Below are positions 27,001-33,000 of a stretch of DNA of 64,000 nt, one piece after another. A program made the position numbers. Position 1 is the stretch's first letter; each line of letters opens with the position of its first letter. Source of the DNA: an uncultured Verrucomicrobiota bacterium (lineage in GTDB: Bacteria; Verrucomicrobiota; Kiritimatiellia; JAAZAB01); NCBI GenBank assembly GCA_964475165.1, contig CAYYVN010000001.1, positions 31,518-95,517 of the forward strand, given 5' to 3'.

Positions 27001-30000
27001 AGCCCTTTCTGACGGCGATTATGTTAATCTTGATCCATGTGGCGCGCCTGTATTATAAAGCCCAACGCCCGCGTTGCGATCGGGGCCATGGCTGGGGTAA
27101 AGTTCGCCTGGTGCATTTCGATAATGGCCCGGAAATCATGGTCGCTGATATTGCACCGGTGGCGCCCAGAGCGCCCGATTAGCAGGCGTTGGATATTCCC
27201 TTTTCGCTGGCCGCCAGTCTGCCGGTTGAAGTGCAGTTGATTGCTGGAGCTGCGCGTGTTATATCAAATGGTCTTTATGCCCAGCTGTCCCGATGCTTGG
27301 TGCCGCATCATAGATCGGATAGCGCACCGCTGGCAGCAGGATAGCTATCGAGATCCGCCATGAAAAATACGGTCTTCAAACTTATGCTGGGTATCTTCGC
27401 CGTGGCGCTTATCTTTCGCCTGGCTTTCTTCCTCTTCGCACTGCACGAGCTGCCGCCCTCGTCCGATGAGGCTTGGCCGGCTCTGATGGGGCGGCATATT
27501 CTGCAAGGCGAGCTGCCGGTCTTTTATTGGGGCCAGGCCTATATGGGCGCTCAGCAGGCTTATTTTGATGCCGCCCTCTATCCTTGGTTGGGCTGTCATG
27601 TCCTGACGACACGGCTTTATCCCCTCCTCTTTTCGTTCCTCTTCCTCTTGAGCAGCTACTGGCTGGCGCGGATGGCCTATGATCGCACGGCCGGCTTGAT
27701 CGCCCTGGCTCTGCTGGCTGTGCCGGTGCCCTACCTGGCTATGAGCGGCGCCATCAGTGTGCCGCCGGAATATCTGGCCGTGACCACCATGGGCAGCCTG
27801 GCCTTGGCCTTGCTGGCTAAGATCGTCTGGCGCACTCCCGGCCGCCCCACAGTGGGGTCCCTGGCTCTGTTGGGGTTCCTGCTCGGCTTTGTTTTCTGGT
27901 GGCATCTGGTGGCGCTGAGCTTCATCGGGGTGGCGCTGCTCTTTTTATTTTTGAAGGATAAATTGATCATCTTCCGCCGCGCCTTCTGGGTTGGCCTGGC
28001 GGGGTTCGCTCTCGGCAGCCTGCCATTTTGGTTACATAATTTCCGACATGGCATGGAAACCTTTGGGGATGTCGGGCGGACCGTCTCCTGGGCTAGCTCG
28101 CTGGCGCTGCTGCGGATGGCCGTTAAGATCACCCTGCACTTCCTGGTGGGCATGAAAGTCATGCTCTATGGCGATAGCAGGCATTTCATCAGCTTGCCAA
28201 CGGTGGTGGCCATGGGCCTGGGCTGGGTTTGGGTGGGCTTACTGGTTGTGCTGCTGGTTAGCCGCTTCAAAAAACTGCTCCGGCATGCCAGGTTAGCGGT
28301 GGCTGGCACAGACGGCACGGCTCTCTTGCTGGCCACGGCCGGGGCGGTATTATTTCTCTTTATACGCAGCGCCCGCTCTGGCTGGGCCGAGGCGCGTTTC
28401 CTGATGCCCCTCTTGGCGGTGTTGCCGGTTATGCTCGCTGGCGGCCTGGCCCAAGTGCGCCAATGGTCGCGCCCGATTTTTACGGCGCTGCTGACCTACA
28501 TCATCGCTTGCCAGCTATGGGGTAATCTGCTTCTGATGCAAGCCTGGAGCGATCCGCACTGTCGCGCCGTCCAACTGGATCTGCCAGAGACAGCCGCCTT
28601 ACATGCTTTCCTGGAGCAACAAGGCATTACTCATGCCTACGCCCATTATTGGATCGCCTATCGGCTGACCTTCGAATCGCAGAACGGGTTGATTTGCACC
28701 GAGCCCTATAACGAGCGCTTCCCCGGGCGCGAGGTGCAATATCTCGATCAGGCCCGGGCCGCGGACCGCGTGGCTTATATTACGCATCCGCAGCTGCCTT
28801 TCACCGATGAAAATTTTGCCCTGCTTCTGCGGCGCATTGGCGGCACCTATCGGCAGCAGCAGGTGGGATGCTTCAGCGTCTTTTATGATTTCCAGCCGCC
28901 CTATGGCCAGCGGGTGCTGGCGGAGATACCGCGAGACACCTGGCGGATCATCACGCATCCCAATCCGGATGCTGCCAGCCTCATCATCGATGGCTCTCTC
29001 CATACCAGTTGGCAAAGCCAGGCTCCGCAGCAAAGCGGTATGTGGGTGGCGGTGGATCTAGGCCAGCCGCTGGAAATATGCAATCTGCGGTTCGATTCAG
29101 GCCGCAGTCTCCGCGATCACCCGCGCGGATATAGGCTGGAGAGCTCGCTGGATGGCGTAGATTGGCACTGTATCGGAGAGATGGGAGCTGTGGGGCAGAA
29201 CCTGTTTTGGGAACAGGACCAGCCCCGCTTCTGCGTCGGGGATGATCACTATTATGCGTCCTTTGCACCAGTCAGCGCCCGCTGGCTGAAATGCACACTG
29301 ACCGCCTCTGACCCCCGTTGGTGGTGGACCATTGCCGAACTGCGCGCGTTTGGCCCGGCCGATCAAGCCGCGCTCTCACCAGCTCGCTAGGAAGTTGGCG
29401 GCAGGATGCGTGGTACCAGAAGCTGCTTTAATCCGGGCAGATCCAGGAACAAGGCTCCGGCGCAGACGATGAAGGCCAGGGCCACCAGATAGACCAGTTT
29501 TTTATGTTGGAACAGCTTTTCCGGATACTGGGTTGGACTGTTGGGCTTGAAACCGAGATGCAGATAATAAGACATGGTATATATCACCAGCGGTGCCGCC
29601 AGCGTTAGCTCCAGGCTATAGCGGGCGACGAATACGCCGGACAGCATCCCAAAGAAACCGGCGCAGAAAAGAATCAAGAGCAGCAGTTTCTCCTCGGTAT
29701 AATAACCAAAGGAGCGGCGATAATTGGCGGCCAGCTGTCCCTGGCCGATGTGCCGGAATTCGGCGAAGCGTTTGACGGCCATCAGGAAGGCCCCAAACAT
29801 CCAATAGGCCAAGACCATTGAGAGCGGTGGTGGCGCCAGCAGGCCGGTGGCATACCAGCCCATAGCCAGGCGAATGGGATTATTGATCGATTCGCTCAAG
29901 ACATCGGCGTAGGGCCAATCCTTGAGGCGGATGGGAGGCGTATTATAGAGCAGCCCCATGATCCAGAGGGCCAGGCTGGAAAAACCAAAGAGCCGATTGA

Positions 30001-33000
30001 TCAAAAAAGCGCCCGCGAGACCGATGAGCGCCAAGCTGAGCCAGAGGCCATAAGCCGCTCGTATATTGATCTGGCCGGCCGGCACGGGGCGGCGGCTTTT
30101 CTCGGGATGATGGCGGTCATAGGGTGCATCCAGGATTTCATTGAGCACATAATTGCTGGAGGCGATCAAACAGGCACAGATCACGCCGCCCAGGATGGAC
30201 CATAGCGCTGCCAGGGAGAAGGCTTCGCGGCAGAAAAAGAATGCCAGCAGAATGCCCGGCAGCATGAAAATATTCTTGAACCAATGCTCGGGCCGGGCGA
30301 TCTGGACATAGGGCATTAGTGGCATATGCTGCTCAAATAAGCTCGGCCAGGCATGCTTGCCGGCTCCCAGCCGATAGGCCTCCCGTTCGCGATGAGTCAA
30401 ACGCCGAAGATAGGCCTTTGCCGCCGCAAAGTCCAGCTTGCATTGGCCATTGGTCGTGCGGCCTCCGCACCGCTTAAAAGGCGTAACGGAGACTGAGGCC
30501 AACGGCGCTGTTGCTCAAGGGGAACTTTAATCGGCGCACATCATTCAGTCGCTGACCGTGCCAGGTGAAATAATGCTCACCTTTTATATCCACTTCGAGA
30601 TAGCGCAGATATAGATCAGCGCTCCAATGCTCAGAAAGCTGTAGGCCCACCCCGCCGTAAATGACGGGGGCCCAGGTGTTATCGAAGGTGAAGTCTTGCA
30701 CGCTTGCATCTTGCGCCGTGCCGCCGCGATAGTGCCAACTGTCCGTGGGATCAAAGGAGCTGTGAATCAGCATAAGCCCCAAGCCGATATAAGGCACGCA
30801 GCGGGCCAGTGGATAGCGGCCGCCGACGCTGAAGATCGGCCCGTGCAGGTCAATGCAGCCATCGCTCTGGCCGTCGGCAGGGCTGCATAAAGTTTTTACG
30901 CGCATCTGATCCCAGGAAGCTTCCAGACCCCAATAACGATGGCAGTTGAAGCGGACGAAAGGTTTCAGCGGCCAGTAGTTTTGTTCCTCGCGCAGCTCGG
31001 TAATGGTGCCATAAAAACTATCCGGCCAATGGCGCCGCTGCTCCCTGAGCCGGAAGAGGGTTAGGCGTGTACCCACTTCCACGCGCCCTAAGAGCCCGAG
31101 GCCCGTCTCAGGCGCCGACCACCAAAAATTTGGCATCACGCCGGGCACCGGCATTTCCATGCTTTTCCCGGCCGCGGGCGCCAAGGCTAGCGTCGTCAGG
31201 AGCAGCGCGCCCGCGAGCGTGCGTCGGCATAAATATTCCAGGAGTCTCATACTAAGATATTTTTGTTTGTTCAGCGCGGCTGGCAGATCAGGAGGCCAGC
31301 GCAGCGCCGCGCAGCTCAAACCCGCATGAGTATGCGCAACAGGCCGCCTGCCAGGAGCGCGGTCAAGACCATCAAGCCCAGAGCTTTCAGCATGTCTCTG
31401 AAGCCCAGCTCCTTGAAGAGCACCGCAAAGGTGGCTACGCAGGGAAAAAACAAGGTCAGCACCGTGACCGCGATGGTGAGTTGGGCCGGCGAAAGCGCCA
31501 GGGGCACCAGCATGCCCACCGCTAAATCTTTACGCAGGAACCCGGCCAAGAGGGCCGGAGCGGCGGCGCCCGGCAAACCGAACCAGCCTTGCATGAAGGG
31601 CGTTAGATAGCGCGCCAAATAATCGATCGCGCCAAAAGCGTTCAGGAGCGCCACCACCAACACACCGAGAAACAGGAAGGGCACCGCTTCGGCCAGAAAC
31701 CAGCGCACGCGCATCCAGGTTTTCTTGAGCATGATCATCAGGCTGGGCCGGCGATAGGGCGGGATATCCAGGAAGAGTTCCGGGCAATCACCGGGCACCG
31801 TTTTGTTCATAATGGCACCCAAGATCAGGAAGATGCTAAAGAGGATGCCATAGACCAGGAAAATATATCTGAGGCCGTAATGGCCGAGCACGCCGAAGAT
31901 CATGGCGCTTTGTGCCATGCAAGGCACGGTGATGCTCACCAGGGTCGCGGCCAGAAAACGCTGCTTGCGCGTCTCCATATTACGTGCCGATAAGACTCCC
32001 GGCACATTGCATCCCAGGCCCAGCAGGACCGGAATGATGCTGTGCCCATGCAGGCCGAATTTATGAAAGACATTATCGGTGACCGTGGCCAAGCGTGGCA
32101 GATAGCCCGAATCCTCCAGGAGGGCCAGGGCCAGATAGAAAGCAATGATATAGGGCAGAACCATGCCAAAGGGCACAAACAACCCAGTGGTGATGACGCC
32201 CATGGACTGTTCGTAATCCACCTGGCCGCCAATCAGTTTGCCGATCAGGACATCCCGCAGGAGCCCCGGTTCCAACCAGCTGCTGAGCGCAGCGATGGGC
32301 GTGCGATATAATTCAAATAGCGGCTCGATAACATAGCCGATAAGCCCCTCGCCCACCAGGCGTACCAAGCCGAAAAGTGCCGCCAGAATCACCAGGGCCA
32401 TGAGCCAGCCAGTACCGGATTTAACGGTGGCATCCACCAGTAGATCTTTGAGGGTATGATGCCGATGCGCCACCACTTGCACCTTGCTCACCAGATGGCC
32501 CACCGCGGTCCAGGTTTTCTCATCGCTATCCTGGAGTTGAGGCTGCGGGGCCGGCTCGGGCGCGCGCGCTTCTTCCAGGCGCTGCACCAGTTCCTTGATG
32601 CCCTCGCCGGTGATGGCCACCGTGGGTACCACCGGCACCTGCAAGAGCCGCTCCAACTCAGCCACATTGATCTGAATGCCCAAATGCTGGGCTTCATCCC
32701 ATAGGTTCAAGGCTATGATCATCGGCTTGCGCAGCTGCAGGAGCTCCACGGTCAGGAAGAGGCTGCGCTCCAGGCTGGTGGCATCCACCACATTGACAAT
32801 CACATCTGCCTGCTGCAGCAACGAGCGCCCCACCTCTTCGGCCTTGTTGGTGGGGCTCAGCGAATACATGCCAGGGGCATCAATGATGGTGGCGGTTGTA
32901 TCGGGCAGACGCAGACGGCCCTTGGCATAATCCACCGTCGTCCCGGGATAATTCGAGGCGATGACGTCCACCCCTGTCAGGCGGGAAAACAGCACGCTTT

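Follow-up and report, generated by a model that had tools for sequence, protein, structure and literature searches.

A GT-C glycosyltransferase gene with a discoidin domain converges with a gene for a predicted UbiA-type phosphoribosyltransferase in an uncultured bacterium of the PVC group

We analysed a 64-kb stretch of the genome (the window; genes elsewhere in the genome may exist) of an uncultured Lentisphaerae/Kiritimatiellia bacterium of the PVC group (Planctomycetes-Verrucomicrobia-Chlamydiae). The window has a G+C content of about 60% and contains two convergent genes that are the subject of this work, one for a GT-C glycosyltransferase ending in a discoidin domain and one for an enzyme of the UbiA superfamily. 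Proteins 99-100% identical to the pair are recorded from a metagenome-assembled genome (MAG) named 'Lentisphaerae bacterium'. The features of the pair are as follows (aa, amino acids; ORF, open reading frame; TM, transmembrane helix; CBM32, carbohydrate-binding module of family 32).

27360..29390, plus strand: GT-C glycosyltransferase, 676 aa, ATG start, with an ArnT-like fold and a C-terminal CBM32/discoidin domain.
27465..27470, plus strand: Asp36-Glu37, in the first periplasmic loop right after TM1, candidate catalytic acidic pair.
28971..29342, plus strand: F5/8 type C (discoidin, CBM32) domain, Pfam PF00754, aa 538-661.
29387..30502, minus strand: UbiA ORF as mechanically called, 371 aa, TTG start.
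29387..30325, minus strand: UbiA-superfamily enzyme with corrected start, 312 aa, ATG start, predicted polyprenyl-phosphate 5-phosphoribosyltransferase (PPPRS-like).
30098..30142, minus strand: first Asp-rich motif NEILDAPYDRHHPEK, aa 62-76 of the 312-aa protein, corresponding to N73...D77...D81...K87 of Rv3806c.

Both ORFs exist and lie tail to tail, as stated in a previous interpretation of this DNA made without database searches (the sequence-only reading), and the ORF calls overlap by 4 bp. The coordinates that it gave for the two genes (27360-30502) were right in part: the UbiA gene is there, but in place of the TTG start at 30502 (371 aa) its start is most likely the ATG at 30325 (312 aa), because the orthologues are 310-317 aa long and the alignment begins at that methionine, codon 60 of the long ORF. 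The GT-C protein has about 60 related protein clusters at 40-66% identity, almost all of about 670 aa and with a discoidin domain, and the UbiA protein has more than 100 at 55% identity or above. Because each has so many conserved clusters, we regard both genes as real and conserved, not as chance ORFs. A promoter and terminator scan of 26300-31400 found sites no commoner than in shuffled sequence.

The UbiA-family protein is probably a PPPRS-like enzyme of a separate, uncharacterised subfamily, whose closest relatives are of the Rv3806c type and not UbiA, MenA, or CyoE. It matched the Pfam family PF01040 (UbiA) with 82.2 bits (cut-off 34.2) over aa 94-322 of the long ORF. Its four best NCBIfam models (equivalog models NF008977/8/6 and NF006088) were the HAD-UbiA model PRK08238, with 93.5 bits, and three models of decaprenyl-phosphate 5-phosphoribosyltransferases (DPPR synthases, DPPRS), with 80.8, 69.7, and 58.6 bits; those for MenA, UbiA, ChlG, and CyoE (heme O synthase) gave at most 40 bits. 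Rv3806c (8j8j) was the top sequence match in the PDB (E 1.8e-12, full length), and the AlphaFold2 (AF2) model of the protein (pLDDT 93.2) had its best TM-score to the same structure (0.78/0.83, root mean square deviation 3.3 Å). With blastp, three DPPRS were matched over their full length with E values of 5e-20 to 7e-14, and E. coli UbiA, CyoE, and MenA over partial lengths with 9e-6, 5e-4, and 0.056, respectively. In a small neighbour-joining tree, the protein, its orthologues, and a 40%-identical protein from a Rhizobium plasmid formed the sister group of the DPPRS from M. tuberculosis, Rhodococcus, and Chondrinema; E. coli UbiA, MenA, and CyoE lay apart. The sequence-only reading had called the protein DPPR-synthase-like and had proposed a phylogeny against Rv3806c, MenA, and UbiA as a check; the NCBIfam, blastp, tree, and TM-score results all place it with the DPPRS, not in the grouping with MenA, UbiA, or chlorophyll synthases that the reading had named as a refutation, and most of the residues that bind phosphoribosyl pyrophosphate (PRPP) are kept.

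In Rv3806c, the ligands of PRPP and Mg are R22, K28, Y70, N73, D77, K87, R90, Q135, Y138, K143, Y157, and K208 (PMC10994848). Ten of these twelve have a counterpart in the window protein (R22, K28, Y70, N73, D77, K87, R90, Y138, K143, and, as Arg, K208), all of them invariant in the subfamily alignment except the K28 equivalent, which is conserved to at least 90%. K28 and Y70 bind the 5-phosphate, at sites that are not common to ordinary UbiA enzymes (PMC10994848). The motif NEILDAPYDRHHPEK (N-E-I-L-D-A-P-Y-D-R-H-H-P-E-K) reads NExxDxxxDRxHPxK, where the sequence-only reading had NDxxDxxxDRxHPxK; the DxxxDRxHPxK part was correct, but NE stands in place of ND, with a Glu that is invariant at that position in the subfamily.

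Several observations weigh against this assignment. Its identity to DPPRS, proven or annotated, is no more than 24-26%, and its scores lie far below all the curated NCBIfam cut-offs (80.8 vs 234, 69.7 vs 207, and 58.6 vs 474 bits for the DPPRS models; 93.5 vs 351 for the HAD-UbiA model). Two substrate contacts are changed (Q135 to Gly and Y157 to Asn), and a three-residue insertion of the subfamily gives the sequence YNxPPxRxKD, in which YNxPPxRxK resembles ordinary enzymes of the AfUbiA type. AfUbiA aligned less well with the model (TM-score about 0.66, about 5 Å), with a marginally better Foldseek E value than 8j8j (1.1e-8 vs 2.5e-8). On its own strand, the gene lies downstream of feoB and of a gene for an outer-membrane-protein-like product. 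The low scores, the YNxPPxRxK motif, the Foldseek E value of AfUbiA, and this position could be expected if the protein were a prenyltransferase of the ordinary kind, with a lipid, quinone, or pigment precursor as its substrate and no part in glycosylation, and its adjacency to the GT-C gene were a coincidence. We consider this very unlikely, given that the 5-phosphate ligands K28 and Y70, which are not conserved in the UbiA superfamily (PMC10994848), are kept, that DPPRS are much closer to the protein than E. coli UbiA, MenA, and CyoE, and that HAD, GT-C, and GT2 neighbours and fusions recur in the subfamily.

An exhaustive HMMER search recovered 292 clusters (50% identity) of this subfamily at E<=1e-30, indicating that it is sizeable and distinct. 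We surveyed the neighbours in 80 metagenome loci with the UbiA protein of this subfamily, using crude ORF calls and clustering of the neighbours, and made the counts on the 57 loci with at least four ORFs. A PMT_2-type GT-C gene (PMT_2 confirmed on representatives) was found within 7 kb of the UbiA gene in 30 of the 57, a HAD hydrolase directly adjoining it in 27, and a membrane GT2 in 14. HAD-UbiA fusions 36-38% identical to the window protein also exist, and in more distant members a phosphatase adjoins or is fused. Plasmids carry the clusters UbiA-HAD-GtrA (Rhizobium, the UbiA being the 40%-identical one), HAD-UbiA-DprE1-DprE2-epimerase-GtrA (Agrobacterium), and DPPRS-DprE1-DprE2-acyltransferase-GT39 (Chondrinema, Bacteroidota). 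The recurrent HAD, GT-C, and GT2 neighbours and the fusions tie the subfamily to sugar chemistry; this context is as expected for enzymes that would make a phosphorylated lipid-linked sugar, later dephosphorylated, flipped, and used by a GT-C enzyme.

Seven members of the subfamily (36-46% identical; P0219, P0223, P0231, P0239, P0233, P0306, and P0357) carry N-terminal fusions, with an S-adenosylmethionine (SAM) methyltransferase in four cases, a HAD hydrolase in two, and a GT2 in one. Going by the methyltransferase fusions, some lineages may methylate the lipid-linked sugar. We also considered P0228, in which a UbiA protein is extended by 560 aa at the C-terminus, as a UbiA-GT-C fusion and rejected it, since it has no similarity to the GT-C family. 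In locus L095 (related loci are designated by L numbers), a 667-aa protein adjoining the UbiA gene (10980-12983, minus strand) has a GtrA/DPMS transmembrane domain together with a GDSL/SGNH domain at the C-terminus and may be a flippase-esterase fusion.

The 676-aa protein has about 11 transmembrane helices (aa 1-397), a periplasmic alpha/beta domain like that of ArnT (aa ~399-525), and the C-terminal CBM32/discoidin domain. Its AF2 model, computed with 51 homologues, had a pLDDT of 93.9 and a pTM of 0.88. When compared with the PDB using Foldseek, it matched ArnT first (5F15/5EZM, E 3e-8, TM-score 0.57-0.63; sequence identity 13-14%), followed by AftD, AglB, and OST/PglB. The N-terminal 520 aa have no Pfam match of their own, PMT_2 (PF13231) being absent at E<=0.01, while more than 30 orthologues have a precomputed PF13231 match; the label 'ArnT-like GT-C' is thus based on these orthologues and on the predicted fold. 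The discoidin domain matched PF00754 with E=3.6e-12 (47 bits, cut-off 28.2) and was predicted to form a beta-sandwich close to CBM32 modules of Clostridium perfringens (Foldseek, TM-score about 0.79); its sequence matches in the PDB were 3f2z and 4txw. An ArnT-like GT-C enzyme with a discoidin domain is what the sequence-only reading had proposed, and the AF2 model, the top fold match, and the PF00754 match agree with it.

Asp36-Glu37 is conserved to at least 90% over 51 family members, down to 22% identity, and R85 and R346 are invariant in the family alignment. Solved GT-C enzymes have a catalytic Asp or Glu after TM1. Because of this position, which is also equivalent to that of D31/E34 in Citrobacter ORF12 (PMC11127046), we regard the pair as the candidate catalytic acids of the active site. 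The charges of the loops fit 11 crossings, with a predicted N-terminus inside and C-terminal domains outside the cytoplasm. At least 559 loci of the family were found in GTDB genomes, from the PVC group, Nitrospirota, Bdellovibrionota, Deltaproteobacteria, and Chloroflexota; the Chloroflexota members align with the GT-C core only (to about aa 510-525 of the query). We know of no characterised member.

GT-C orthologues at least 45% identical to the window protein lie within 10 kb of a UbiA gene at six loci, the window itself, L006, L008, L009, L014, and L096. In L008, two GT-C/discoidin copies flank the UbiA gene, L009 also has two copies, and the gene order varies among the six loci. All of the UbiA-linked orthologues fall in one clade of the GT-C tree, and a UbiA gene is nearby in six of its eight members; one of the two others sits on a 5-kb contig. 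A second kind of GT-C gene also belongs to this setting, as indicated by a relic in the 'intergenic' DNA, 1 kb long, that precedes the GT-C gene.

26467..27010, plus strand: relic of a second GT-C gene, of the 735-aa PMT_2 type, codons ~15-170 joined to ~536-617, with an internal deletion and a frameshift.

The relic was detected by tblastn with the 735-aa protein of L009 and the 702-aa protein of L094 (46-50% identity over 92-103 aa, E 3e-18), the C-terminal pieces lying in another frame. Since it matches the 735-aa GT-C, whose intact gene adjoins the UbiA gene in L009, L094, and L096, the discoidin GT-C, the 735-aa GT-C, and UbiA constitute a three-gene set that recurs. The ORFs overlapping the relic, 26320..26649 (minus strand), 26593..26868 (plus), and 26681..26965 (plus), are probably not genes.

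Other findings weigh against the use of the UbiA product by the window GT-C. The two genes are convergent and therefore not co-transcribed. The gene nearest to UbiA in L009, L094, and L096 is that of the 735-aa GT-C, dead in the window, and this decayed enzyme could have been the true partner of UbiA. About ten close orthologues of the GT-C have neither a UbiA nor a GT2 gene within 10 kb. Outside the UbiA-linked clade, a GT2 synthase adjoins GT-C relatives in at least ten lineages. A small GT2 (244-247 aa) is directly beside GT-C orthologues in L002/3, L004/5, L019, and L020, and more distant GT2 genes are beside relatives in L022, L023, L026, L027, L033, L035, and L076. Among NCBIfam models, the small GT2 resembles AglJ, dolichyl-P-hexose transferase, ArnC, and PpgS most, which identifies it by similarity as a polyprenyl-phosphate-sugar synthase. 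Finally, one GT-C inside the clade, that of L004, has this GT2 and is about 89% identical, in alignment, to the UbiA-linked GT-C of L009.

These data would fit a different arrangement, in which the GT-C would use a polyprenyl-phosphate-hexose or -hexosamine made by an unlinked GT2 (GtrB/ArnC/Ppm1-type), UbiA would still make a lipid-linked phosphoribose but for another GT-C (of the 735-aa pseudogene type or unlinked), and their adjacency would be the remnant of a multi-GT-C island. We hold this to be possible but rather doubtful: tblastn found no AglJ-like GT2 in the window at E<=1, the window GT-C belongs to the clade in which UbiA is mostly nearby, and in L008 the UbiA gene is flanked only by the two GT-C/discoidin paralogues, on a contig with neither a GT2 nor a GT-C of the 735-aa type. 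That the window GT-C uses the product of UbiA has, in our estimate, slightly better than even chances. The sequence-only reading had taken the two genes for a functional pair; the recurrent synteny and the single clade speak for it, whereas the donor is unsettled because most of the wider relatives adjoin a GT2 synthase of the hexose type and not UbiA.

Loci L004 (10001-13860) and L009 (5699-15162) come from two strains of the same metagenome. Between comEC and a gene for an alcohol dehydrogenase, both have GT-C/discoidin and FG-GAP genes that are almost identical. L004 has a small AglJ-like GT2 gene downstream of the GT-C gene; L009 has an inserted block with the second discoidin GT-C, the 735-aa GT-C, and UbiA, plus an epimerase and a methyltransferase-GT2 fusion. 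From the gene content, this looks like the swap of a donor-synthase module in a variable glycan locus. Near GT-C/discoidin orthologues in L002 (7301-8905, plus strand), L084, L090, and L075 we also observed a 534-aa membrane protein that has an N-terminal motif in common with the terminal beta-(1->2)-arabinofuranosyltransferase AftB (NF041481, E 1e-8, short stretch) and with a Rhodococcus AftB-like gene; it is possibly a further GT-C enzyme of the discoidin GT-C islands.

We screened the window for the other partners of such a pathway with Pfam, on ORFs of at least 180 aa, and by tblastn with reference proteins from Chondrinema, Rhodococcus, Rhizobium, and metagenome loci. Neither a HAD-PRP or PAP2 phosphatase (Pfam, tblastn) nor a flippase (GtrA by tblastn; MatE, SMR, or GtrA by Pfam) was found in the 64 kb, and these absences count against the module that we propose below. 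No epimerase was found either: there was no tblastn match to DprE1 or DprE2 (Chondrinema queries, E<=1e-3), no Pfam match to FAD_binding_4, ALO, or adh_short in the scanned ORFs, and no DprE1/DprE2 in about 20 PVC loci with the UbiA subfamily or the GT-C clade. In published systems, the epimerase, if used, is clustered with the synthase (PMC11127046). For these reasons, ribofuranose is our default prediction and more likely than arabinofuranose.

The arabinose pathway like that of mycobacterial decaprenylphosphoryl-arabinose (DPA), which the sequence-only reading had proposed with a search for DprE1/DprE2-like genes as a check, thus found no support in the window or in the related PVC loci examined. 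It would require that DprE1 and DprE2 be encoded elsewhere and that the GT-C be an arabinofuranosyltransferase. Clusters of DPPRS, DprE1, DprE2, and GT39 do occur outside Actinobacteria, as on the Chondrinema and Agrobacterium plasmids. Also, in an Anaerolineae MAG (L082, 328-4240), a gene for a 28%-identical relative of the GT-C without a discoidin domain has DprE1/DprE2-like genes (378 and 174 bits to NCBIfam models) immediately upstream, in divergent orientation, on a contig that ends before any synthase gene. With no such gene in the window or at the about 20 PVC loci, and with epimerases normally clustered with the synthase where they are used (PMC11127046; the plasmid loci), we judge this explanation unlikely.

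We propose that the two genes encode a module for decorating glycans in the periplasm, of the 'lipid-linked pentofuranose' type, and we give this about even chances. Going by homology and conserved residues, the UbiA enzyme would transfer 5-phosphoribose from PRPP to polyprenyl phosphate, presumably undecaprenyl phosphate, on the cytoplasmic face of the membrane. The 5-phosphate would then be removed and the lipid-linked sugar flipped to the periplasm, a step for which no gene was identified in the window; as no epimerase is evident, the sugar would most likely stay ribofuranose and not become arabinofuranose. The ArnT-like GT-C, of which the fold is the modelled part and donor and acceptor the presumed parts, would pass the sugar on to a glycan outside the cytoplasm by means of its Asp36-Glu37 loop, while the CBM32 domain would hold the acceptor polysaccharide as do the CBMs of EmbC, AftD, and Citrobacter ORF12. 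The second GT-C that accompanies UbiA in relatives has decayed to a pseudogene in this genome.

Divergent from the GT-C gene is an operon that begins with a small membrane protein.

25827..26333, minus strand: small membrane protein, 168 aa, at the head of the operon divergent from the GT-C gene.
23995..25830, minus strand: NodU/CmcH-type carbamoyltransferase, 611 aa (Pfam Carbam_trans_N E 2e-103, Carbam_trans_C E 8e-72).
22366..23826, minus strand: membrane-anchored SGNH/GDSL hydrolase, 486 aa (Pfam Lipase_GDSL_2 E 1.9e-15).
21029..22312, minus strand: major facilitator superfamily (MFS) transporter, 427 aa (Pfam MFS_1 E 2e-24), at the end of the same operon.

In L006, L012, and L014, counterparts of the first three genes accompany the GT-C orthologues. 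The 168-aa protein has no Pfam or NCBIfam match and is found beside the carbamoyltransferase and the GT-C in L006, L007, L012, and L014 (47-58% identity); the carbamoyltransferase orthologues in L006, L012, and L014 are about 80% identical; and in L006 and L014 an SGNH orthologue (67% identical) immediately precedes the UbiA gene on its strand. These three products would probably further modify the same glycan. We tried the SGNH protein as a flippase fusion with GtrA, as in L095, and rejected it, its N-terminus not being GtrA-like. The MFS gene is the sole transporter gene near the pair and is not conserved in related loci; a role as flippase is speculation. Further upstream are genes for Wzz, RmlC, and an NDP-sugar epimerase/dehydratase, which, together with the divergent operon, put the pair in a surface-polysaccharide neighbourhood.

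The PVC-type UbiA subfamily might also make a new kind of lipid-linked donor, such as polyprenyl-P-ribose-5-phosphate that is used unchanged, or a pentofuranose bearing carbamoyl or methyl groups. The idea stems from the lack of a linked phosphatase, epimerase, or flippase in the closest loci, from the carbamoyltransferase and SGNH genes being co-operonic in relatives, and from the methyltransferase fusions elsewhere. We think it improbable. If true, the CBM32-bearing GT-C enzymes would install an undescribed decoration on PVC surface glycans, and near-identical GT-C enzymes would swap between donors made by GT2 and by UbiA.

On the strand of the UbiA gene, one gene separates it from feoB.

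30474-31250, minus strand: 258-aa protein between feoB and the UbiA gene, with a signal-peptide-like N-terminus and the C-terminal sequence ...LRYAF.

This protein has no Pfam or NCBIfam match, and a 27%-identical match to it was found 3 kb from the GT-C orthologue in L020. A C-terminal ...LRYAF is typical of outer-membrane beta-barrels; with its N-terminus and its C-terminal Phe, the protein looks like an outer-membrane protein.

A separate cluster at 36677-44997 encodes a GT4, a radical SAM/SPASM protein, a 1148-aa PMT-type GT-C (at 38927), a polysaccharide deacetylase, and a B12-binding radical SAM protein. The sequence-only reading had suggested that the 1148-aa GT-C may be a second acceptor-specific transferase. 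This was not borne out, as the protein belongs to this other cluster and no link to the pair was found: its similarity to the discoidin GT-C family is weak and in the PMT_2 core (hhalign probability 17%), and it is not beside a UbiA gene or a discoidin GT-C gene in any related locus. Its Pfam match is limited to aa 118-262, with about 880 aa beyond it without a match, and it has no sequence match in the PDB. We also observed that the gene for PurH appears split. An ORF at 18698-19384 (plus strand) encodes the MGS-like/IMP cyclohydrolase part and the beginning of the AICARFT domain (~60 residues), and a second ORF at 19774-21027 (plus strand) covers PurH model positions ~177-511, with a gap of about 390 bp between them; the 454-aa ORF at 19660..21024 (minus strand) is probably an antisense artefact of the second.

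To our knowledge, almost nothing is known about the surface glycans of the PVC group. If our proposal is correct, extracytoplasmic pentofuranose decoration extends to this superphylum (Lentisphaerae, Kiritimatiellia, and Verrucomicrobia). Two uncharacterised families are also marked out, the UbiA subfamily (~290 clusters) and the discoidin ArnT-like GT-C family (>550 genome loci). By their gene content, the loci also appear to exchange donor-synthase genes (GT2 vs UbiA) beside nearly identical GT-C enzymes, which, if true, would be a testable model for the diversification of bacterial surface glycans. The locus is therefore useful as a lead both to PVC surface-glycan chemistry and to donor-module swapping.

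No new concept is involved. Kelly et al. (PNAS 2024, PMC11127046) have already described the mechanism, by which alpha-pentofuranose side chains are added in the periplasm by three components, a polyprenyl-phosphoribose synthase (HAD-UbiA), a flippase, and a GT-C with a CBM (GT136), epimerases being optional. Candidate systems of this kind are widespread, some with several GT-C genes (PMC11127046). In P. aeruginosa Pa5196, homologues of DPPRS, DprE1, and DprE2 and the GT-C TfpW arabinosylate pilin (bioRxiv 10.1101/2020.04.19.049825). With characterisation in Citrobacter and reports from P. aeruginosa and others (same sources), the novelty outside Actinobacteria that the sequence-only reading had claimed does not hold. 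The same applies to its view that a CBM is unusual on such enzymes: EmbA/B/C, AftD, and the GT136 enzyme ORF12 carry one too (PMC11127046). The pair is a new lineage-specific version of an established concept; the locus differs from the known systems in the separate UbiA subfamily without a fused phosphatase, the lack of a recognisable flippase or epimerase, the ArnT/PMT_2-type GT-C, the CBM32 module, and the PVC host.

Among the known systems, ArnT (GT83) and other PMT_2 enzymes with their GT2 synthases (ArnC, GtrB, Ppm1) resemble the window GT-C in that ArnT is the best fold match, that an acidic pair follows TM1, and that many relatives adjoin an ArnC/AglJ-like GT2. Unlike ArnT, to which it has 13-14% identity, the window GT-C has an extra CBM32 domain, and in its clade a UbiA-type synthase replaces the GT2 as neighbour. 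The Pa5196 system shares with our proposal a Gram-negative GT-C and a PRPP-derived lipid-linked pentofuranose; its acceptor is pilin and it has epimerases (bioRxiv 10.1101/2020.04.19.049825), whereas neither pilin genes nor epimerases adjoin the window pair. With the mycobacterial DPA pathway (Rv3806c, Rv3807c, DprE1/DprE2, Emb/Aft), the window shares a UbiA enzyme for which Rv3806c is the closest solved structure, with 10/12 PRPP/Mg ligands in common, and the occurrence of CBMs on GT-C enzymes, there Emb and AftD. It differs in the low identity of that enzyme (24-26%), in Q135G, Y157N, and the D-to-E change in NDxxD, in the absence of PAP2 and DprE1/DprE2 from the window, in the lipid (presumably undecaprenyl, and not decaprenyl), and in a GT-C that is nearest to ArnT and not to Emb/Aft.

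The system closest in logic is ORF15-ORF14-ORF12 of Citrobacter youngae O1/O2 (PMC11127046). It differs from the window in that the window UbiA has no fused HAD and belongs to a separate subfamily (93.5 vs 351 bits for PRK08238), that no MATE, SMR, or GtrA flippase gene is near the pair, that the window GT-C is ArnT/PMT_2-like while ORF12 founded GT136 and resembles no existing family, that the window CBM has a discoidin/CBM32 fold and that of ORF12 is Ig-like, and that the window host is of the PVC group. A proxy for ORF12, the 529-aa GT-C of the Agrobacterium HAD-UbiA/DprE1/DprE2/GtrA cluster (L178), showed no similarity to the discoidin GT-C family (hhalign probability 1.4%), and NZ_CP032687.1 gave no match to the window UbiA protein. 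Because no flippase gene was found in the window, and a phosphatase was found with more distant members of the UbiA subfamily and not in the window, we file the pair as working like a three-component system and not as a demonstrated member. In both cases, a gene for a UbiA-family phosphoribosyltransferase, predicted in the window, adjoins that for a GT-C with a C-terminal CBM, and both follow one predicted scheme, in which a lipid-linked pentofuranose derived from PRPP would decorate a finished glycan outside the cytoplasm.

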